Virus record (IMG/VR): IMGVR_UViG_3300031788_000008
Span: 55,793 to 75,792 of that record
Length of the DNA stretch: 20,000 nucleotides
Strand: one strand, 5' to 3'
DNA from: an uncultured virus (IMG/VR IMGVR_UViG_3300031788_000008)
Taxonomy: Duplodnaviria > Heunggongvirae > Uroviricota > Caudoviricetes
Shown one piece after another: positions 4,563 to 20,000 of the stretch (positions are counted from its first letter, which is position 1; the number at the start of each line of letters is the position of its first letter). The notes beneath the pieces are model-generated. The model made no database searches and had not been told where the DNA came from. It saw only the letters and a program-made list of their open reading frames with translations. Made by a program: the position numbers and the translations under genes.

Positions 4563-5168
4563 ATGAATTTCGATTATACCCCAAAAGCATCAGGACCAAA
4601 GAAAGCAATTGGCCTATCTGTTACACAAACCATCAATAATGACGGCACAGCTTCAACAAACGCAATTTTTCAAGACAGCGATGGATTACCGATCACTGCC
4701 GCTCAGTTCAACAATTTATACCCAGTAGGTGTAGCGCTTCCAACGGTTACCGCTGGCGACAGTACACCAGGCCCTTCAGCATTTAAAGTTGTAGCAGTTA
4801 CTCCTCCAACTGCAAGCACTGCGGTCCCTGGGGCCTTTGTTGTAGCTACAACTTCCGCTGTTACACCACCTTCAGTTCCACCACCAACTGGCTGGGGACA
4901 AGCTGTGGATTTTACTTGCTCAATCGCTAGTGGATTGGTAGGACAATCTACAACCCAATCTGTGGATGCCGGAACATTGAGTGTTGTCAGCAACTCCAAC
5001 AATCCAGCAGCGTTCACCGTATCAACAAACAGCAGCGGTGTAGGGCTGGTGGCAGCGGGCGTGCCAGCTACTACGATTAAAAGTGCGTTTACTTCACCTG
5101 CTAAGCCTACGATTACCCCTGGATATCAACATTCTCCAGATCCATCAACAGGCCGTAAGATTTATTAG
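4563..5168 (+). CDS. Thr/Ser/Pro/Ala-rich protein, possibly virion-associated
   Basis: RBS AAGGAG; beta-rich, low-charge composition; followed by a terminator. Confidence 0.75.
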   Translation: MNFDYTPKASGPKKAIGLSVTQTINNDGTASTNAIFQDSDGLPITAAQFNNLYPVGVALPTVTAGDSTPGPSAFKVVAVTPPTASTAVPGAFVVATTSAVTPPSVPPPTGWGQAVDFTCSIASGLVGQSTTQSVDAGTLSVVSNSNNPAAFTVSTNSSGVGLVAAGVPATTIKSAFTSPAKPTITPGYQHSPDPSTGRKIY

Positions 5169-5889: not shown

Positions 5890-5918
5890 TTGACAAATAT
5901 TCCAACTACCAGTATTAT
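5890..5918 (+). promoter_or_regulatory. Sigma70-type promoter of the Tyr/Leu tRNA cluster
   Basis: TTGACA-17 bp-TATTAT. Confidence 0.85.
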
Positions 5919-5933
5919 ACTCATAAGGCATTT

Positions 5934-6017
5934 ATGAACAACATTACCCTATCACCGTCATTGTCGTTGCTGGCTTATTACCTTAGCTTGCCACGCGGCG
6001 GTGTGTTCAACGGGTAA
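5934..6017 (+). CDS. Putative attenuator leader peptide MNNITLSPSLSLLAYYLSLPRGGVFNG (Leu/Ser/Tyr-rich)
   Basis: 27 codons directly after the promoter; Leu CTA,TTG,TTG,CTG,CTT,TTG; Tyr TAT,TAC; Ser TCA,TCA,TCG,AGC. Confidence 0.8.
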   Translation: MNNITLSPSLSLLAYYLSLPRGGVFNG

Positions 6018-6041
6018 ATTTTAACCCGATTCGAATTAACC

Positions 6042-6072
6042 GCCGCCCCGAAATGGGCGGCTTTTGTTTTTT
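6042..6072 (+). terminator. Attenuator terminator, mutually exclusive with antiterminator 5995-6046
   Basis: GCCGCCC-CGAAAT-GGGCGGC-TTTTGTTTTTT; leader GCGGCGGT (5995-6002) is complementary to ACCGCCGC (6039-6046). Confidence 0.85.
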
Positions 6073-6077
6073 GTGGT

Positions 6078-12918: not shown

Positions 12919-13224
12919 ATGAAGATACGCCTACAAACTGCAATAACATTTGTAGCCGCACTGTGGCTGCTGATGCTTCTGGTGGGTTGCGAAGCTGACC
13001 CGGTATCAAGGGTGCAGAGCAGCAACAACAAAAACATCACGGTGGACTTCCTATTTGAACATGAAGGGTGCCGGGTGTACCGATTTGATGACGGCGACAT
13101 GCGGCAGGTTTACTACGCCAACTGCGGTGCGTTCGCACAAACCTCGTGGGACCGCTCGTGCGGCAAAAGCTGCACTGTACACGAAACCGTTTCAACTTCC
13201 GGTTATGGAAAAAGCAAGCATTAA
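12919..13224 (+). CDS. Lipoprotein, DUF4884-like
   Basis: Lipobox LVGC; VDFLFEHEGCRVYRF motif. Confidence 0.75.
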   Translation: MKIRLQTAITFVAALWLLMLLVGCEADPVSRVQSSNNKNITVDFLFEHEGCRVYRFDDGDMRQVYYANCGAFAQTSWDRSCGKSCTVHETVSTSGYGKSKH

Positions 13225-13242
13225 AAAAGGAGAACGAACCCG

Positions 13243-13473
13243 ATGAGTAAAATCACACCAAAGAAAGAGAAAGTGTTTACGATCACAGCCCGCGTTGTGA
13301 TCATTAAAGATCTGGATATCAAGGCCGACACTTTCGAAAAAGCTTTGGAAGAAGCCCAGAAACTATCGGAGTCTGACTTCGTGTCTTACGAGGGGTCGCC
13401 GCTCGATAGCAGCATACGCATCGTATCTATCAGTTCTCCCGACGCATGGCAGGTGGAGCGGCCACGGGGTTGA
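13243..13473 (+). CDS. Hypothetical protein
   Basis: RBS AAGGAG; I.A.TFEKALEEA pattern typical of small phage proteins. Confidence 0.7.
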   Translation: MSKITPKKEKVFTITARVVIIKDLDIKADTFEKALEEAQKLSESDFVSYEGSPLDSSIRIVSISSPDAWQVERPRG

Positions 13474-13602
13474 ACGGTAGCCCAAAGGAGCCGATAAACA
13501 GGCAGCAAGGTGAGGTTCGGTAGAACCGACAAAATGATGCGAGAAGCGGACAAGCACTTCATATGACGGCTGTAGTATCATAGGTACAAGGAATAACAGG
13601 TG

Positions 13603-14154
13603 ATGAAAATAGAGGATTCTGTGGAAACTGTGAATACATCAGCTAAAATTGATATCTTTAAATATGAATGGGAATTTTTGTCTAATTTTTATCCCTGTGA
13701 GATTGTTTGGGAAGGAATTACTTACGCTTCCACAGAGCACGCATACCAAGCGGCTAAGACACTGGATATAGAGAAACGCCGGATGTTTGGATTAGAAGAC
13801 AACCCTCGTTTAACAGCCAAAAAAGCAAAAGATATGGGAGCAAATATCAAGAAGAACGGAGAGCTGCGCTCCGATTGGCTCAAAGTCAATATCGGCATCA
13901 TGCGGGAATTGTTGGTATTGAAATTTGAGAAAGAAGAGCTGAAACAAAAATTATTGTCCACAGGCACCGCTTATTTGGAAGAAGGGAACTGGTGGGAAGA
14001 CAATTTTTGGGGTGTTTGTTATGGGGGCACAGAAAAAGGGTTCCATGGAATCAAATGCGGCAAATGGCCCCATGTCCCTTCGGGTGAAAATCATTTAGGT
14101 TTATTGCTTATGGCTATTAGGGCTACGTTTATTCCTAGAATACAGGTGGCATAA
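13603..14154 (+). CDS. NADAR / YbiA-family protein
   Basis: FLSNFYP, YASTEHAYQAAK, LKF...LKQKLLSTG..YLEEGNWWEDNFWG, GENHLGLLLMAIR. Confidence 0.92.
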   Translation: MKIEDSVETVNTSAKIDIFKYEWEFLSNFYPCEIVWEGITYASTEHAYQAAKTLDIEKRRMFGLEDNPRLTAKKAKDMGANIKKNGELRSDWLKVNIGIMRELLVLKFEKEELKQKLLSTGTAYLEEGNWWEDNFWGVCYGGTEKGFHGIKCGKWPHVPSGENHLGLLLMAIRATFIPRIQVA

Positions 14155-14155
14155 A

Positions 14156-14332
14156 ATGACAAAAAACGAAATACTATACAACTTAAAAAACGGACGAAGG
14201 TTGCGTTGCGATAGGAAAGATGAACCGTTATTGCCTTGGTTGCTAGAACATCCAAACATCCAGAATAAATTTGTGCAAGTTGATGACCAGTCTAGCTATA
14301 TTGAATTTATTTGGGAGAAAAATAATCCTTGA
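14156..14332 (+). CDS. Small hypothetical protein (58 aa)
   Basis: ATG one base after the NADAR stop; MTKNEILYNL...WEKNNP*. Confidence 0.6.
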   Translation: MTKNEILYNLKNGRRLRCDRKDEPLLPWLLEHPNIQNKFVQVDDQSSYIEFIWEKNNP

Positions 14333-14357
14333 CAATTTTTCAACTACCCAGTATTAT
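14329..14357 (+). promoter_or_regulatory. Sigma70-type promoter of the Pro/Met tRNA cluster
   Basis: TTGACA-17 bp-TATTAT; shares CAACTACC(C)AGTATTATA with the 5890 promoter. Confidence 0.85.
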
Positions 14358-14457
14358 ATAAAGAGTAGTAGTAAAGTAAAAGTTGGCTCGGAACGAGCCA
14401 TCAGGAAATGGGGGGTTTTGGGTAAAACTGAAGCCCATCACCAAAATTGAGATAATT

Positions 14458-14526
14458 ATGACCAAAATGCGACCGATGCCGATGTTTCCACCAAGCCCTA
14501 TGGGGCGCGGGGTCGCTGGACTTTAG
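14458..14526 (+). CDS. Putative attenuator leader peptide MTKMRPMPMFPPSPMGRGVAGL (Met/Pro-rich)
   Basis: 22 codons; 5 ATG; Pro CCG,CCG,CCA,CCA,CCT. Confidence 0.8.
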   Translation: MTKMRPMPMFPPSPMGRGVAGL

Positions 14527-14529
14527 TCC

Positions 14530-14558
14530 AACCCCGTGCTAGCGGGGTTCTGTTGTTG
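14530..14558 (+). terminator. Attenuator terminator, mutually exclusive with antiterminator 14505-14539
   Basis: AACCCCGT-GCTA-GCGGGGTT-CTGTTGTTG (imperfect U tract); leader GCGCGGGGT (14505-14513) pairs with ACCCCGTGC (14531-14539). Confidence 0.7.
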
Positions 14559-14601
14559 TAACAAATTTTCCCATATCAAACAGAAATCCCTTTTTGCATT
14601 T

Positions 14602-14676
14602 CAGGGTATAGTGTTAATGGTAGCACCCTAGTTTCGGGAACTAGTAGTCTCAGATCATTCCTGAGTACCCTGACCA
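14602..14676 (+). tRNA. tRNA-Pro(CGG), non-canonical T loop
   Basis: CAGGGTA/TACCCTG+ACCA; CTAGT-TTCGGGA-ACTAG; T loop ATCATTC. Confidence 0.88.
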
Positions 14677-14681
14677 GTTTA

Positions 14682-14717
14682 CGGTGTAGCTCAGCCCGGT
14701 TTAGAGCAAGCACACCG
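14682..14717 (+). pseudogene. Internally deleted tRNA-Pro-like remnant
   Basis: CGGTGT-AGCTCAGCCCGGTTTAGAGC-AAGC-ACACCG: a D arm closed by a short stem; no anticodon or T arm. Confidence 0.55.
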
Positions 14718-14775
14718 ACTTTCGTTACTTTTTGTACAGCTATCAAGATTTTTTGTAAAAGGAGTTACTTTTAAG

Positions 14776-14850
14776 CAGGGCGTAGATCAGAGGAAGATCG
14801 CAAGTCTGGGGGACTTGAGGCCGGAATATCATAATTTCCCGCCCTGACCA
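14776..14850 (+). tRNA. tRNA-Pro(GGG), non-canonical T loop
   Basis: CAGGGCG/CGCCCTG+ACCA; CAAGT-CTGGGGG-ACTTG; T loop ATCATAA. Confidence 0.85.
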
Positions 14851-14872
14851 CAGTTTGAAAATTTAAATTTAA

Positions 14873-14958
14873 CTAGGTGTCGGGTAGTTTGGTTTAGCCC
14901 ACATGCCTTGGGCGCATGTCTCGAAAGAGAATCGCAGGTTCAAATCCTGCCACCTAGA
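14873..14958 (+). tRNA. tRNA-Pro(TGG) with long variable arm, no encoded CCA
   Basis: CTAGGTG/CACCTAG+A; CATGC-CTTGGGC-GCATG; variable hairpin TCTC-GAAA-GAGA; GCAGG-TTCAAAT-CCTGC. Confidence 0.88.
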
Positions 14959-15024
14959 CATTGGCGACTGTCAGCCGTTAGTAAGTCTGACTTAAAGGCG
15001 CATAGAGCGCAGTCGCACTTTTTT

Positions 15025-15285
15025 ATGAGTGTATTCGGCAATACATGCGGCGTACGCATTTACAGAGGTCCATGCACCTGTAAAACTGCCTGCCCTAAAT
15101 GTCAAATAGGCTGCTGGAATCCCGCTGCATATCGTAACCCATGGTTTGGGAAGCCTGGGCACCAGATTTATTGGTGGAGGGATCCATACAGCTACGCGGA
15201 ATTTTTATGCGTAGAGCATTATGATGATGCTGTTAAAGACATTGAAGAATATGAAGAACTTTACCAAACGAAGGGTGTTTGCTGA
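15025..15285 (+). CDS. Small Cys-rich protein (CxxHYD)
   Basis: Start moved to ATG 15025, after the tRNA; FLCVEHYDD. Confidence 0.65.
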   Translation: MSVFGNTCGVRIYRGPCTCKTACPKCQIGCWNPAAYRNPWFGKPGHQIYWWRDPYSYAEFLCVEHYDDAVKDIEEYEELYQTKGVC

Positions 15286-15286
15286 A

Positions 15287-15475
15287 ATGAAATATATTTA
15301 TGAAGATCACGAGAAGCATACCACATGGGAATGTGAAGCCGAGGATTTGCTTGCAGCGGATAAACTCTATGAAGCCGCTGGATGTAGGATGAGTGAAAAC
15401 GCAAAAAGAAAAAAATCTATGCCTAATGATGTAGGGGCATGGTCACCCGATTGGGCGTGTAACAAAAAGGCATAA
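15287..15475 (+). CDS. Small hypothetical protein
   Basis: ATG one base after the upstream stop. Confidence 0.6.
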   Translation: MKYIYEDHEKHTTWECEAEDLLAADKLYEAAGCRMSENAKRKKSMPNDVGAWSPDWACNKKA

Positions 15476-15503
15476 TAGGTTTATTCCAACTAATGGAGGA
15501 AGT

Positions 15504-16164
15504 ATGATTATCGAAATTAGAGCGGCTGAAGGCGGACAGGACGCAAAATTACTGGTCGAAGATCAAATGACCATCTACGCGAGGTTGGCGATACGGAGGG
15601 GTCTTTGAGTTTGATGTTACCGAACAACGCCCAGGTATAGCTATCCTGCGCATTACAGGGGCTACAGCGCCTCAAGTCTTCGCTAACGAGGCAGGAGGTC
15701 ACCGTTTTCAGAGAATTCCTCCCACGGAGCGTAGCGGTAGAGTTCAAACCAGTACAATTACTGTGGCTGTTTTTGATGAACCGGAAGTTGCTGCTTTTGC
15801 CGTATCCCCAAATGATTTGGCATGGGAGACAATGCGCAGCGGGGGTAAGGGCGGTCAAAACGCCAATAAACTGGAAACAAAAATACGCTTAAAACATAAA
15901 CCTACAGGATTAGTCGTGGTTTGCGAATCAGAACGTAGCCAAAAAAGAAATAAAGACACGGCCTTAGCTGTCCTTACAGCACGTTTGTACGCTGCTGATA
16001 AGGATAAAAAAGCTGAAGCTGCTACTACGGATAGGCGACAACAAATAGGAACGGGACAACGAGGAGATAAACGCCGTACAATACGAGAAAAAGATGGAAA
16101 AGTCGTAGACCATATCACCGGTCAAAAATGGCGTTATTCTGATTATGTAAAAGGCATTTGGTAA
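15504..16164 (+). CDS. Class I peptide chain release factor, RF1-type PxT motif, no domain 1, expressed through a +1 frameshift at 15603-15608
   Basis: RBS GGAGGA; MIIEIRAAEGGQDAKL...RRGL(CTT TGA); +1 frame EFDVTEQRPG...NEAGGHRFQRIPPTERSGRVQTSTITVAV...GKGGQNANK...ERSQKRNK...KRRTIR; about 219 aa. Confidence 0.92.
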
Positions 16165-16167
16165 AAA

Positions 16168-16779
16168 ATGGAACAATATCCACATATCGAAGGCAGTACA
16201 AAGGCTCCTATAGGAGAACCGTGCATCGCTTTTTATAAGTACGATGGTAGTAATCTGCGCTTCGAATGGAGCCCTAAAAAAGGCTGGCATAAGTTTGGCA
16301 CCAGAAAAGAACTTTTTGACGCTCGCCATCCTTTGTGGTCTCAAGCCCTTCCCTTGTTTTTAGAGTTTGGAGATGAGATTGTAAAACGAGTGAAAGCATC
16401 GGATTGGCGATTGAAAGGTATCCAACGAATTACTGTTTTTTGTGAATTCTTTGGACCTAGCAGTTTTGCCGGAATTCATGATGAAAAAGAGCCTAAAGAA
16501 TTGCGTTTGATCGATGTATACCTTTTCAAAAAAGGTATGATGCCAGCGAAGCAATTTGTAGAAATTTTTGGAGATATGCCCCAGGCAGCACAGGTAATTT
16601 ATCAGGGAAATTTGACTAAGCAATTCATAGATGATGTGCGCTTTGGGGCTTATTCTGTGAATGAGGGCGTGGTCGCTAAGGGCGCTGATTTTCGGGTAAA
16701 AATAAAAACTGCTGCTTACTTCAAAAAATTGAATGAACGGCTCCCAGAGTTAGCGAATGCCTTTGATTGTGAGTATTAG
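16168..16779 (+). CDS. ATP-dependent RNA ligase-like nucleotidyltransferase (Rnl2-type)
   Basis: Motif I YKYDGSN, III FCEFFG, IIIa LIDV, IV EGVVAK, V VKIK; no OB domain. Confidence 0.82.
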   Translation: MEQYPHIEGSTKAPIGEPCIAFYKYDGSNLRFEWSPKKGWHKFGTRKELFDARHPLWSQALPLFLEFGDEIVKRVKASDWRLKGIQRITVFCEFFGPSSFAGIHDEKEPKELRLIDVYLFKKGMMPAKQFVEIFGDMPQAAQVIYQGNLTKQFIDDVRFGAYSVNEGVVAKGADFRVKIKTAAYFKKLNERLPELANAFDCEY

Positions 16780-16792
16780 ACTCTGTACGAGT

Positions 16793-16890
16793 TTGTGCTA
16801 ATACGAGGTGCGGAGTTCCATAGATTTAGGCGGAACAAGACCTAATTTCGGAACTCTACTGGCGACGGTCAGAGTTACCTCGTAGCACAA
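16793..16890 (+). ncRNA. Unidentified rod-like structured RNA
   Basis: TTGTGCT/AGCACAA, ACGAGGT/ACCTCGT, GGAGTTCC/GGAACTCT nested stems. Confidence 0.5.
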
Positions 16891-16892
16891 TT

Positions 16893-17046
16893 TCCCAAAC
16901 AGATACTTGTCTGGGAGAACTTGAGGACTCAGTGAGCCTCAGGTGGGGCATATTGGTGGACCCCTGTCCTTCGGGACTTAATCTGGCGGCCCAAGACGAG
17001 GAGTCAAGGGCTTAAAGAATCCTAGATTTTTAGTCTGGGAGCATCA
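16893..17046 (+). mobile_element. Orphan IS200/IS605-type right end / omegaRNA-like segment
   Basis: Series of hairpins ending GAATCCTAGATTTTTAGTCTGGGAGCATCAA, same layout as the right end at 5604-5636. Confidence 0.55.
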
Positions 17047-17156
17047 AGCAGTATTTTTTCAATTGGTGTATTCACCGTTTGCAGATTTGTACCGCTGGGG
17101 TTAATAAGGACGGTTGGTATGGAAAGTATAGGGACTTGGTAAAATTTTTTATTTAC

Positions 17157-17235
17157 GCCAGTGTAGCATAGTCCGGCCTAATGCGCTTCGCTCATAACGA
17201 AGAGATCGGTGGTTCAAATCCACCCGCTGGTACCA
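17157..17235 (+). tRNA. tRNA with CAT anticodon (elongator Met; Ile2 not excluded)
   Basis: GCCAGTG/CGCTGGT+ACCA; CTTCG-CTCATAA-CGAAG; GGTGG-TTCAAAT-CCACC. Confidence 0.92.
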
Positions 17236-17255
17236 AAATTTTAATGGAAAGTATA

Positions 17256-18425
17256 GGGAACTATATAGTTAACTCCCCCGGCTAGAACATAACAATGCTG
17301 AGAACTTTTCAATGTCGGTTGTATCCAAACGCGACGCAGAGACACGCGCTGGAGTTCGTCTTGCGTGACAACGCGGAGACGTACAACGCGGCTCTTGCAG
17401 AGCGCCGAGATGCATGGAAGTTGGAGCGCAAGGCGATCACCTATCGAATGCAACAGGACGAACTAACAGAACTACGCCGTGATGAACAATTTGCAAGAGT
17501 CGCCTGCGACATTCAACGTGATCCCTTGAGAAGGGTTGACCGAGCATTCCAAGCGTTCTTTCGGCGTTGTAAAGCAGGCCAGAAGCCAGGCTTTCCTCGT
17601 TTTCGCTCTCATCTGCGCTACGACTCTTTTGGATTCAGTCTCCCAGTCGTGAATAGTGAACGTCTGAGGATTCCGAATGTGGGGCAGATCAAACTGCGCG
17701 GAGGCCGCAGCATTGCAGGTAAGGCGAAGTGTTGCACGGTCAAGCGAGACGGCAACCGTTGGACGGCTTCAGTCGTGTGCGACATTGGTCCGGCACCAGG
17801 GAAGCGTATGGTAACAAATGCTGTCGGAATAGATATGGGCCTGACGACGCTCGCCACGCTGTCGGACGGGACGGAGATTGAGAACCCACGCTGGACCCGA
17901 CAGCACGAAGACCTGATTGCAGCCGCGAATCGCCTACTGGCACGGAAGCATAAACGTTCGAAGAACCGCATCCGGGCGCGGGAAGCACTGCATCGCGCTC
18001 ACCAGCGGGCCGCGAATGCCCGTCGCAACTATCTGCATCACGTTTCCAAATGGCTTGTGGGTAATTACGACCTGATCGCCCACGAAGCCTTAAACATTAA
18101 AGGCATGGCGCAAGGACATTTCGCCAAGTCGATTATGGATGCCGCATGGAGCATTCTGCTGTCGCAAGTACGCTACAAGGCTGAGAGTGCCGGAGTGTAC
18201 GCGATAGCGGTGAATCCACGCGGCACGTCACAAATGTGTTCGGGTTGCGGTCGAAACGTTCCGAAGAAACTGGCGCAGCGGGTGCATAGCTGTCCGCACT
18301 GCGGTCTAGTTCTGGGGCGTGACCACAATGCCGGACGGAACATTTTAGCGTTGGGGATCAACGCTGCGGGCGTAAGCCTTCAAAATCTACACACGACTCG
18401 GGTTAGGGAGTTATGTATAAGTCCC
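17256..18425 (+). mobile_element. tnpB-only element with terminal inverted repeats and 8-bp target site duplication
   Basis: Left GGGAACTATATAGTTAACTCCC; right (reverse complement) GGGACTTATACATAACTCCC; AAAGTATA at 17248-17255 and 18426-18433; GC-rich relative to flanks. Confidence 0.85.
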
Positions 18426-18434
18426 AAAGTATAG
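17295..18434 (+). CDS. tnpB: RNA-guided endonuclease TnpB
   Basis: RLYPN N-terminus, GFPRFR, RuvC I VGIDMG, RuvC II IAHEAL, zinc finger CSGCG...CPHCG, RuvC III RDHNAGRNI; D-E-D intact. Confidence 0.96.
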   Translation: MLRTFQCRLYPNATQRHALEFVLRDNAETYNAALAERRDAWKLERKAITYRMQQDELTELRRDEQFARVACDIQRDPLRRVDRAFQAFFRRCKAGQKPGFPRFRSHLRYDSFGFSLPVVNSERLRIPNVGQIKLRGGRSIAGKAKCCTVKRDGNRWTASVVCDIGPAPGKRMVTNAVGIDMGLTTLATLSDGTEIENPRWTRQHEDLIAAANRLLARKHKRSKNRIRAREALHRAHQRAANARRNYLHHVSKWLVGNYDLIAHEALNIKGMAQGHFAKSIMDAAWSILLSQVRYKAESAGVYAIAVNPRGTSQMCSGCGRNVPKKLAQRVHSCPHCGLVLGRDHNAGRNILALGINAAGVSLQNLHTTRVRELCISPKV

Positions 18435-18515
18435 TTCCCATTTTAAGGGGGTTAAATATGGCAATTCAGTTCACGCTTCATACCGCGTAAGGTGTGGGCG
18501 GATCAGGAGAAGGCC

Positions 18516-18806
18516 ATGAAACACCCTTGTAATCGGGCGGAACGCCGTGCTGTTCGTGACGGTAAAATCGACCGCCGTAAGTATATTGCTACATGCATTT
18601 GGCGTGATTACGATATAGTTCCCCATGAAGGAACCCCTCAAAATTGGTATCAACCCAAAGAATGGGGGCGTTTTGCTAAATTTAACCTGAATTGTGGCTG
18701 TATGATGTGTCATTCAGAGAAGTATTTTAAACATAAACGCAAAAGACGCGAAGCCCTCAAACAATCAATCAGTTATAACATAAGAGAATGGGATGAAATA
18801 TCTTGA
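18516..18806 (+). CDS. Small basic hypothetical protein (CGCxxC)
   Basis: RBS AGGAG before ATG 18516. Confidence 0.7.
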   Translation: MKHPCNRAERRAVRDGKIDRRKYIATCIWRDYDIVPHEGTPQNWYQPKEWGRFAKFNLNCGCMMCHSEKYFKHKRKRREALKQSISYNIREWDEIS

Positions 18807-18833
18807 CAATTTTTTAATTATAGGTATTATAAT
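18803..18833 (+). promoter_or_regulatory. Sigma70-type promoter
   Basis: TTGACA-16-TATTAT(AAT), directly before structured RNAs and a tRNA. Confidence 0.75.
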
Positions 18834-18842
18834 AATTGAAGC

Positions 18843-19055: not shown

Positions 19056-19134
19056 TGCGGGGATTAAGCTACGGTGCGCTTGGATGTCTCATAAGCATTC
19101 CTCTTAGGTGGTTCAACTCCACCCTCCGCTACCA
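19056..19134 (+). tRNA. tRNA-Met(CAT), initiator-like acceptor end
   Basis: TGCGGGG/CTCCGCT+ACCA (1:72 mismatch); GATGT-CTCATAA-GCATT; GGTGG-TTCAACT-CCACC. Confidence 0.82.
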
Positions 19135-19822: not shown

Positions 19823-20000
19823 AGTTTCAAAGAGACATAATCCCGTCGCCCTGCTTGCTCGACTAAGGCGGTGTGGGGTGTTGAGACCGGTAAGTTTGAC
19901 GACGATCCGGGTACGAAGTCCCTATCCTTTCTGATAGGGTGGTTGCGGGTGTTCTAGTCCACGCAATGACTAGCTAGCATTTTAGAAGTGATTTTTGTGG

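Follow-up and report, generated by a model that had tools for sequence, protein, structure and literature searches.

Leader-peptide attenuators are familiar from the enterobacterial leaders trpL, hisL, leuL and pheL and from the multivalent examples ilvGMEDA (Ile/Leu/Val) and thrL (Thr/Ile), and the E. coli pheST genes for phenylalanyl-tRNA synthetase have a leader-peptide attenuator as well. To our knowledge, all classical members of this class control genes of amino-acid biosynthesis or of aminoacyl-tRNA synthetases. The present analysis concerns a short Met- and Pro-rich leader with two overlapping hairpins that lies ahead of transfer RNA (tRNA) genes in 20,000 nucleotides of DNA from an uncultured virus of the Caudoviricetes (IMG/VR record IMGVR_UViG_3300031788_000008, positions 55,793 to 75,792; this whole stretch is called the window hereafter). 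It is likely that a ribosome-read leader-peptide attenuator here heads the Pro/Met/Phe tRNA block of a huge phage, and the phage probably makes these tRNAs only when Pro, Met and Phe codons are decoded slowly.

With the enterobacterial attenuators the phage locus shares a short, codon-enriched open reading frame (ORF), a stop codon placed so that a ribosome finishing the leader would melt the antiterminator, two mutually exclusive hairpins with a common segment, and several amino acids per leader. It departs from them in what lies downstream, namely tRNAs, a gene similar to release factor 1 (RF1) and an RNA ligase, so that tRNAs and translation-repair proteins would be controlled rather than biosynthetic enzymes or synthetases. 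The leader also holds about one codon per tRNA species of its block instead of runs of a single codon, and the design is phage-borne, present in up to six units per genome and without a match to an Rfam leader family. The likeness to pheST is that the ribosome, in reading test codons for one amino acid, controls a component of the translation apparatus that belongs to that amino acid; because the product of pheST is a synthetase its signal is charging, whereas the phage loop, the product of which is tRNA, would respond to the supply of tRNA species. T-box riboswitches likewise couple the status of a tRNA to read-through of a terminator ahead of translation-related genes. The T-box, however, binds uncharged tRNA directly and needs no ribosome, whereas the phage switch would be read by ribosomes, and no T-box match was found in the window.

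The nearest published system found is a set of spare tRNA genes in Anabaena sp. PCC 7120, the trn operon or L-array, which is silent by default and comes on when translation is impaired (PMC8421152, PMC10272220). The phage units would resemble it as spare tRNA blocks switched on under impaired translation, but the Anabaena operon is one array that is not sorted by amino acid. It is held off by the repressor protein TrcR (PMC10272220), and the terms 'attenuat', 'leader peptide' and 'terminator' are absent from the main text of PMC8421152. No description of leader-peptide control of tRNA genes was found in the full-text literature searched, the coverage of which did not extend to subscription journals. 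We class the locus as a new use of leader-peptide attenuation, by which the tRNA genes of huge phages would be gated. The reading bears on why phages carry tRNA genes and how they use them; if it holds, the phage would gauge decoding speed codon by codon and make tRNAs on demand rather than constitutively, and the logic of attenuation in amino-acid operons would have been re-used for the translation machinery itself. Such a leader would also be a compact natural sensor for the supply of single tRNA species, with a sequence signature by which more units could be found in metagenomes.

The leader and its hairpins

The original prediction for this locus, made from the sequence alone, described a Met/Pro leader, an antiterminator overlapping a terminator, three tRNA-Pro genes, a release factor, an RNA ligase and a CAT tRNA. 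Every element so described is found in the sequence, with small corrections, and those that carry the argument are as follows.

14329-14357, + strand: promoter-like TTGACA-17-TATTAT, 11 of 12 positions matching
14458-14526, + strand: leader ORF MTKMRPMPMFPPSPMGRGVAGL, 22 codons, ATG at 14458, stop codon TAG at 14524-14526
14505-14539, + strand: hairpin 1 (GCGCGGGGT..TGGAC-TTTA-GTCCA-ACCCCGTGC), proposed antiterminator, -23.0 kcal/mol
14530-14549, with tail to 14561, + strand: hairpin 2 (AACCCCGT-GCTA-GCGGGGTT), proposed terminator, 14530-14537 paired with 14542-14549, loop GCTA
14602-14676, + strand: tRNA-Pro, anticodon CGG, CCA encoded, atypical T loop (ARAGORN; Rfam 45.8 bits)
14776-14850, + strand: tRNA-Pro, anticodon GGG, CCA encoded, atypical T loop (Rfam only)
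14873-14959, + strand: tRNA-Pro, anticodon UGG, 87 nucleotides with an extra 12-nucleotide variable arm (ARAGORN; Rfam 50.6 bits)
17157-17235, + strand: tRNA with anticodon CAT, read as Met, elongator Met, initiator and Ile2 being alike possible (ARAGORN; Rfam 63.7 bits)

Met or Pro makes up 10 of the first 15 codons of the leader, as had been predicted, with the true start about 2 nucleotides earlier than placed. The Pro codons are CCG (twice), CCA (twice) and CCT (once), there is a single TTT for Phe, and the test codons at 14467-14502 comprise four internal Met, five Pro and one Phe. For each of the four downstream anticodons, CGG, UGG, GGG and CAT, the leader has a cognate codon (CCG, CCA, CCT and ATG); the Pro part of this match had been predicted and is confirmed by the Rfam and ARAGORN calls. 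All four tRNA genes are borne out, that with anticodon GGG by Rfam alone (14776-14847, 41.7 bits with a cut-off of 29), having been called neither by ARAGORN nor in the first Rfam pass. Altogether the downstream tRNAs read 9 of the 21 codons after the start, against a background of 0.078 (binomial P 1.3e-5).

Hairpin 1 consists of an outer stem (14505-14513 with 14531-14539) and an inner stem (14517-14521 with 14526-14530), and the stop codon straddles the junction of the two parts at the tip, taking in the last bases of the apical loop and the base with which the 3' arm of the inner stem begins. In what follows, A denotes the 5' arm of hairpin 1, B its 3' arm, which pairs with either A or C, and C the segment 14542-14549. 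Both hairpins are present as claimed, with 14530-14539 in common, and are therefore mutually exclusive; the stretch 14500-14562 has a folding z of -2.88, one of 200 shuffles folding as well. Searches for Rfam leader families and the T-box (whole window at gathering score; 14300-15050 at E up to 1) returned tRNA matches only.

Under the attenuator reading, transcription would start just 3' of the promoter and a ribosome would translate the 22-codon leader, the codons of which match tRNAs encoded downstream. Were decoding slow, with the matching charged tRNAs scarce (e.g. host tRNAs depleted or cleaved), the ribosome would wait on codons 4-12, upstream of A; hairpin 1 would form with B locked in it, hairpin 2 could not, and the polymerase would proceed into the tRNA genes. 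Were decoding fast, the ribosome would reach the stop codon in the loop of hairpin 1 and melt A, and the freed B would pair with C to give a GC-rich hairpin with a U-rich tail that stops, or at least lowers, transcription. Because the products are themselves the sensed tRNAs, the arrangement would be a supply-on-demand feedback with about one test codon per tRNA species. We infer that hairpin 2 terminates transcription in this phage and that the response runs in the direction just given; frame-fixed geometry and the codon match lend indirect support to the view that the leader is read by ribosomes.

Sister units and codon-anticodon matching

A second unit of the same design lies upstream in the window.

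5890-6075, + strand: sister Tyr/Leu unit with the same promoter type, leader MNNITLSPSLSLLAYYLSLPRGGVFNG (5934-6017), and tRNA-Tyr and four tRNA-Leu genes downstream

Its terminator is canonical (GCCGCCC-CGAAAT-GGGCGGC at 6042-6061, followed by TTTTGTTTTTTGT), and its leader holds a codon for each of the five downstream anticodons: CTA, TTG, CTG and CTT match the Leu anticodons TAG, CAA, CAG and GAG, and both TAT and TAC match GTA. The promoters of the two units bear directly on each other. A scan overall gives 7 promoter-like sites where 7.5 are expected, so the match at 14329-14357 alone proves little; the site is nearly identical to the one before the Tyr/Leu leader (about 5890-5918), and their common core CAACTACC..AGTATTATA is found at these two promoter sites only in the 75.8-kb record. 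Downstream of the Pro-type leader, no -10 element of the family type (YRGTATWMT) occurs on the + strand from 14349 until 19171, and the general promoter scan gives one site, matching at 9 of 12 positions, between leader and tRNA-Met (16053).

In all, 16 units of six types, each with its own promoter, short ORF, alternative hairpins and tRNA block, are present in four related phages, namely that of the window and three long relatives whose tRNA regions were compared: G001 (332 kb), G006 (224 kb) and G007 (463 kb). Here and below, G labels denote related phages, L labels loci or contig stretches, and X labels metatranscriptome runs. The six types are Tyr/Leu; Pro/Met/Phe; Val/Ala/Asp/Cys/Gly/Glu; Ile/Thr/Gln; Ser; and Trp/His/Arg/Asn/Gln/Lys. 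Four of them are found in G001 (Tyr/Leu; Pro/Met/Phe; Val/Ala/Cys/Asp/Gly/Glu; Ile/Thr/Gln) and the same four in G006, while G007 has these together with the Ser unit (leader MNRISSLSSSSSSFGGFGERVRWRGW) and the Trp/His/Arg/Asn/Gln/Lys unit (leader MTSMKHNTVARKQWRNRRHDGVGLSSDTEFGK). A blind scan for a terminator with an ORF ending less than 80 nucleotides before it and a tRNA less than 900 nucleotides after it recovered 13 of the 16 units and one unrelated site; the relatives' three Pro-type units were missed because their tails are not T-rich.

Under strict wobble rules, a leader has a cognate codon for 104 of the 111 distinct anticodons of its own block, as against 179 of 409 when leaders and blocks are swapped within one phage, and the figures are 100 of 107 and 167 of 397 once CAT and the start codon are excluded. 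The true assignment of leaders to blocks ranks first of 24 in G001, first of 24 in G006 and first of 720 in G007. Since the relatives repeat the design, the arrangement in the window is more than chance, and the use of about one codon per tRNA species, rather than of codon runs, suggests that it is the single tRNA species that is sensed and not the amino acid.

All 16 leaders have a common upstream layout, made up of a AAAAATAAT stretch, a -35-like element and a -10 region of the form ACTTCC/CAACTACC..(T)GGTATTAT or CAGTATACT, of which three examples are given.

Window, 14318-14360: common promoter layout ahead of the Pro/Met/Phe leader
L175, 1400-1455, reverse strand: common promoter layout
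L019, 2845-2895, reverse strand: common promoter layout

Conservation of the Pro-type leader

The pattern ATGCGACCNNNNNCGATGTTTC was matched at 11 viral loci, in at least 119 metagenome stretches and in 64 stretches of cellular genomes, and 130 viral or metagenome loci were screened. Among the matches listed, screening left at least 12 Pro-type sequences, one of them the window's own DNA in a metagenome contig, and it is to this set that the counts of 12 and 11 below refer; none of the 64 cellular-genome matches is a Pro-type leader. Hairpin 1 encloses the stop codon in all 12 (dG -18.0 to -31.0, z -2.4 to -5.8). The end of segment A falls exactly 11 nucleotides 5' of the stop codon in each of the 11 sequences that fit the register pattern, and in these same 11 all eight outer pairs are standard. 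Three outer pairs covary among the ten distinct sequences: pair 3 is GU three times, GC four times and AU three times; pair 4 is CG eight times, UA once and UG once; pair 5 is GC nine times and CG once. The inner stems always pair in spite of their differing sequence (TGGAC, ACCGTT, GCTC, GACGATT and others). A homologous hairpin 2 is present in 12 of 12, and the varying nucleotide of B (T, C or A) stays paired with C, on our reading of the sequences. Maintenance of both Pro-type helices by covariation, in the register that the pattern sets, is thus supported at the level of sequence comparison.

The leaders of this set also bear on the trigger of the switch. The original prediction had offered limitation of elongation factor P (EF-P) at Pro-Pro as an alternative signal, so that the leader would sense EF-P activity and not tRNA supply, and the FPPSP stretch in the window's leader accords with this. 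A Pro-Pro pair is nevertheless found in only 3 of the 12 Pro-type leaders (window, L244 and L265) and is thus not conserved, and the other five leader types are without proline runs, so that hardly any credence can be given to EF-P as the sensed quantity.

Two further observations concern the searches for such leaders. Early pattern scans gave 153 loci, mostly by chance, and ARAGORN found tRNAs in six of them only.

L050, L053, L106 and L109: tRNA-bearing early loci with GCGCGGGG..CCCCGTGCT
L127 and L153: tRNA-bearing early loci with GGTGTGTTCAAYGGGT

Separately, in two metagenome relatives a Cys-rich ORF that by eye resembles an HNH-type homing endonuclease stands directly 3' of the Pro-type leader and before any tRNA, at L228 2-358 (reverse strand) and at L265 657-1022.

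RNA from the leader region

Six peat metatranscriptome runs contain 36-74% of the sampled words of 13600-17300, and four of them were compared as assembled contigs over 13000-17600. In X17 and X18, which belong to two studies, one contig spans 14376 to 14842 or 14848 and is flanked on either side by sequencing adapter, its depth from 14386 on being 39.7 (X17) and 14.7 (X18) as against 0-2.6 upstream.

14376, + strand: RNA 5' end in two runs, 19 nucleotides after the -10 hexamer, adapter directly before it

This end may be a transcription start or a processed end. An RNA with its 5' end at 14376, whether by initiation or by cleavage, thus includes the leader, the two hairpins and the tRNA-Pro genes with anticodons CGG and GGG; the contigs end with adapter at 14836-14848, within tRNA-Pro(GGG). 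Read-in from upstream also occurs, since pieces in X15 and X16 begin at 14033 and 14330. The attenuator part of the original prediction therefore stands on the codon-matched leader, the exclusive hairpins, 16 recurrences, covariation, and the presence of the leader and two tRNA-Pro on one RNA, whereas its EF-P part was not upheld.

Ribosome position and the choice of register

The window leader was folded under a ribosome mask, with the transcript 14376-14601 and the ribosome placed codon by codon. With the A site on codons 2-12, A:B stands at 0.98-1.00 and B:C at 0.00-0.01; on codons 13-21, A:B is 0 and B:C 0.83-0.89; at the stop codon both are 0. In sister units whose transcripts were cut before the 3' arm of the terminator, the 5' arm is sequestered at 0.7-1.0 with the ribosome on the test codons and freed to 0.05-0.4 once the ribosome sits on A; this switch is seen in 6 of 8 units and is not clear in the Tyr/Leu and Val/Ala units of G001. 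Full-length equilibrium folds show the switch in 2 of 6 sister units, and in 4 of 6 the terminator is formed at every ribosome position.

Several observations weigh against the attenuator reading. A ribosome on Pro14 or Met15 already covers A and favours hairpin 2, so that only the earlier test codons (Met4 to Pro12) fit the model. At equilibrium without a ribosome, the full transcript prefers B:C (0.62) over A:B (0.27), through pairing of GCGACC with GGTCGC, and the on and off states would accordingly depend on kinetics. The RNA contigs pass straight through the proposed stop, contigs being unable to show what share of the RNA ends there. The cautions that came with the original prediction also hold: the only Shine-Dalgarno-like letters of the leader are GAGA, 7-10 nucleotides 5' of the ATG, and the tail of hairpin 2 at 14550-14561 (CTGTTGTTGTAA) has 7 U in 12 positions, interrupted and with no unbroken run. 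Among the other Pro-type sequences the tail is canonical in L228 (TTTTTTGTTGTG) and U-rich, as in the window, in L244, L265 and G001; G006, L297, L200 and L250 have a poor tail, and G007 and L185 have none. The covariation was counted in a register set by a pattern that limits the allowed letters, and the conservation of the MRP and MF codons is no evidence, because the scan pattern demanded them; a plain MAFFT alignment with RNAalifold on four sequences gave the outer helix only, with no compensatory pair and some broken cells, which is why the pattern-set register was used for counting. Finally, a check by eye of 17 starts of tRNA genes or clusters in the distant phages L005, L009, L010, L013 and L015, which have the ligase or the release factor in common with the window, found no leader.

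The weak U tract after hairpin 2 would be accounted for by a shifted, trp-like register of four segments, in which A:B is a protector, B:C the antiterminator, and a third hairpin the terminator.

14544-14601, + strand: third hairpin (GGGGTTCTGTT / AACAG-AAATCCC, 24-nucleotide loop), then CTTTTTGCATTT; -11.8 kcal/mol

Its pairs span 14544-14590 and overlap C, and CTTTTTGCATTT occupies 14590-14601; the hairpin could serve as terminator instead, or be a tRNA-like stem that arises once the polymerase has read through. In the shifted register only a stall on the last test codons (Pro14, Met15) would cover A and free B, and either no translation or full translation would lead to a stop before the first tRNA. 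In agreement with this, when the region is folded with no ribosome, the minimum-free-energy structure combines A:B with the third hairpin, which drops from about 0.8 to about 0.3 when the ribosome occupies codons 13-21 and stands at 0.84 at the stop codon; a like hairpin followed by TTTTGTGCTTT is found in G006 and L297. Set against it are the 24-nucleotide loop and the modest -11.8 kcal/mol of the third hairpin, the restriction of its U run to the window, G006 and L297 (there is none in G001, L200, L228, L244, L250 or L265), and the canonical U tract that belongs to hairpin 2 in L228. The units of the other types have a canonical terminator tail in all 12 cases, and in these 12 sister units the stop-enclosing hairpin is the antiterminator, as A:B should then be by homology of layout. 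Because the stop-enclosing hairpin is the antiterminator in the 12 unambiguous units, and because L228 has a canonical terminator at hairpin 2, the register with A:B as antiterminator and B:C as terminator was kept, and the shifted register appears unlikely.

The Pro-type sequences without a tail raise another account, by which the switch acts on the folding or processing of the first tRNA and not on transcription: freed B would capture the 5' acceptor strand or a tRNA-like stem, and the precursor would misfold. The 5' acceptor strand of the first tRNA-Pro(UGG) does serve as the 3' arm of hairpin 2 in G007 and L185, and the 3' acceptor strand of that tRNA recurs in segment B, at 7 of 7 letters in G001 and G007 and at 6 of 7 in G006. 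In simulation the acceptor stem of the first tRNA forms (0.84-0.99) only with the ribosome on codons 7-10 in G007 and 10-12 in L185, standing at 0.00 at the stop codon or without a ribosome. The same stem, however, is at 0.98 in every state of the window and at 0.99-1.00 in G006, and the first tRNA of the window is Pro(CGG), with a different acceptor stem; G001 was left out of this comparison, its ARAGORN start being off. The states of G007 and L185 could be explained by a deletion between direct repeats CGGGG, and the account by tRNA folding or processing is rather improbable. An alternating GGGG/CCCC chain that would toggle the fold of the first tRNA was considered and rejected, having been found in G007 and L185 only and not in the window, G006 or L250.

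The weak Shine-Dalgarno letters and the read-through of natural transcripts are also what would be expected if there were no translational control at all, the ORF being unread and the hairpins an element for 5' processing or for stability of the tRNA precursor, perhaps the remnant of a tRNA-Pro gene. The B, C and D segments do resemble tRNA-Pro acceptor strands, and in L265 an end CCCCGACCA follows. Left unexplained by such an element are the codon-anticodon match in 16 units of six types and the geometry of the leaders, with the stop codon always inside hairpin 1 and A exactly 11 nucleotides before it; we regard it as very unlikely.

Spacers and further tRNA genes of the block

The remainder of the block, beyond the tRNA genes already given, contains the following.

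14964-15024, + strand: branched hairpin GGCGACUG..CAGUCGC, then a U6 run; -21.7 kcal/mol, z only -1.64
15025-15475, + strand: two small overlapping ORFs, 15025-15285 (Cys-rich) and 15221-15475, without family match
15504-16164, + strand: RF1-like release factor without domain 1, in two frames (frame 0, 15504-15608; +1 frame, 15607-16164)
16168-16779, + strand: minimal ATP-dependent RNA ligase, 203 amino acids, nucleotidyltransferase domain only (phrog_548, E 5.6e-5)
16780-17156, + strand: structured non-coding spacer, 377 nucleotides; -134.8 kcal/mol, z -5.54, none of 100 shuffles as good

Behind the tRNA-Pro genes, the branched hairpin may mark a stop or a site of processing. There are RNA contigs over the release factor, the ligase, the spacer and tRNA-Met as well, but none of those listed bridges 14848 to 15780, and cover is little or absent at about 15310-15770, which makes the contigs uninformative on co-transcription. 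Given the want of a bridging contig and the branched hairpin with its U6 run, it is by inference that the release factor, the ligase and tRNA-Met are placed on the same transcript as the leader, in an operon that would reach to tRNA-Met. The spacer, itself covered by RNA contigs, matched no Rfam family and nothing in five related phage records.

Two tRNA-Phe genes close the Pro-type block of G001, G006 and G007, in keeping with the TTT codons of their leaders. The window ends at 20000 and no Phe tRNA comes before that point, its contig probably stopping short of its Phe tRNAs; the unit is named Pro/Met/Phe because the leader has a Phe codon and tRNA-Phe genes end the block of the relatives.

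Three observations on these parts stand on their own. The tRNA-Pro genes are unusual: in two of them the T loop departs widely from the GTTCRANNC consensus, and that for the UGG species has an enlarged variable arm. In two RNA runs from two studies, contigs join 15192 back to 15030 (163 bases) inside the Cys-rich ORF 15025-15285, at the highest depth of the region; the joint could come from an RNA in circular or tandem form, or from template switching on an abundant RNA of 163 nucleotides. In two RNA runs, contigs also join 17231, the 3' end of tRNA-Met, to 18838, which sits a few bases after a second TTGACA-17-TATTAT promoter (18795-18838 region) and ahead of a second CAT tRNA at 19057; this joint probably reflects either chimeric joining of one RNA's 3' end to the 5' end of another or a deletion variant.

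The release factor and the RNA ligase

The predicted release factor proved to be RF1-like, to lack domain 1 and to be split over two frames. A slip site, GGAGG-GGT-CTT-TGA-G, lies at about 15596-15609 with the +1 step at CTT-T, and it is kept in all five phage homologues, the stop being variously TGA, TAG or TAA.

L003, L004, L005 and L006, around position 5000: slip sites of release-factor homologues

The joined product of 219 residues aligns without a break across the junction to RF1 residues 89-298 (E 2.3e-46); model scores are 205 and 198 bits for RF1 and 134 bits for prfB (RF2), and PPT stands in place of the PxT motif of RF1. The features of a prfB-type frameshift are present, namely a CUU codon with an in-frame stop, a Shine-Dalgarno-like GGAGG 3 nucleotides upstream, homology that continues in the +1 frame, and conservation. 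The phage gene differs from prfB in that its product is RF1-like and without domain 1, and not RF2, that its site corresponds to about residue 120 of RF1 and not to the vicinity of the N terminus, and that the stop at its slip site varies among phages. RF1 is not known to read TGA, which is the stop at the slip site of the window. No case of an RF1-like factor with a prfB-like slip site was described in the literature searched, which was covered at the level of titles and abstracts.

The RNA ligase that had been predicted is supported, by a modelled fold and by motif. Motif I, KxDG (K24-Y-D-G27), is invariant in 9 of 9 sequences, and the predicted model (pLDDT 81.9) has its best Foldseek matches in T. 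brucei REL1, T4 Rnl1 and a Naegleria RNA ligase (E 6.7e-6 to 1e-3, TM 0.54-0.60, with only the core domain aligned). Sequence searches gave no Pfam, NCBIfam or PDB match, and none of the family-specific N- or C-terminal domains of Rnl1, Rnl2, Rnl3 or Rnl5 was found.

Together, the RF1-like gene with its slip site and the minimal RNA ligase point to a putative wider translation-repair module. It is possible, and is advanced here tentatively, that tRNA supply in huge phages is controlled across the whole genome at the resolution of single tRNA species. The tRNA genes would be sorted into blocks, each gated by its own leader with about one test codon for every tRNA of the block, so that a shortage of any one tRNA, such as that caused by a host anticodon nuclease, would switch on just the replacing block. 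With the frameshift-controlled RF1-like factor and the RNA ligase, this would make one counter-defence regulon of sensing, resupply, repair of cut tRNA and control of termination.

The record and its relatives

The window is the final 20 kb of a virus record of 75,792 bases (CheckV completeness 24%), and all its genes lie on the + strand. ARAGORN finds 10 tRNA genes in it, and it also encodes a 5'-3' exonuclease, AAA ATPases, a NADAR protein, a crAss001_48-like protein and TnpB. The release factor and the ligase led to relatives whose contigs measure 141 to 463 kb and have 23 to 69 tRNA matches each, and the window is for that reason taken as huge phage DNA. The stretch is present in peat and permafrost metagenome runs; 14300-17300 had no blastn match among 50,697 phage records.

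The TnpB gene (IS605-type), at 17257-18434, looks like a polymorphic insertion, with a G+C content of 53-57% as against about 43-46% around it, and contigs in three RNA runs jump from 17256 straight to the sequence at 18435 of the window, without the gene. As to the genetic code, reading TAG as sense extends the open frames of the window's record less than reading TGA or TAA as sense does, and the record accordingly bears no sign of amber (TAG) recoding. Amber readers, tRNAs with anticodon CTA, do occur in G001, G006 and G007, where one to three of them lie in a leaderless block.

L021, 4203-4489: CTA tRNAs
L177, 2386-2461: CTA tRNA
L180, 1936-2254, reverse strand: CTA tRNAs

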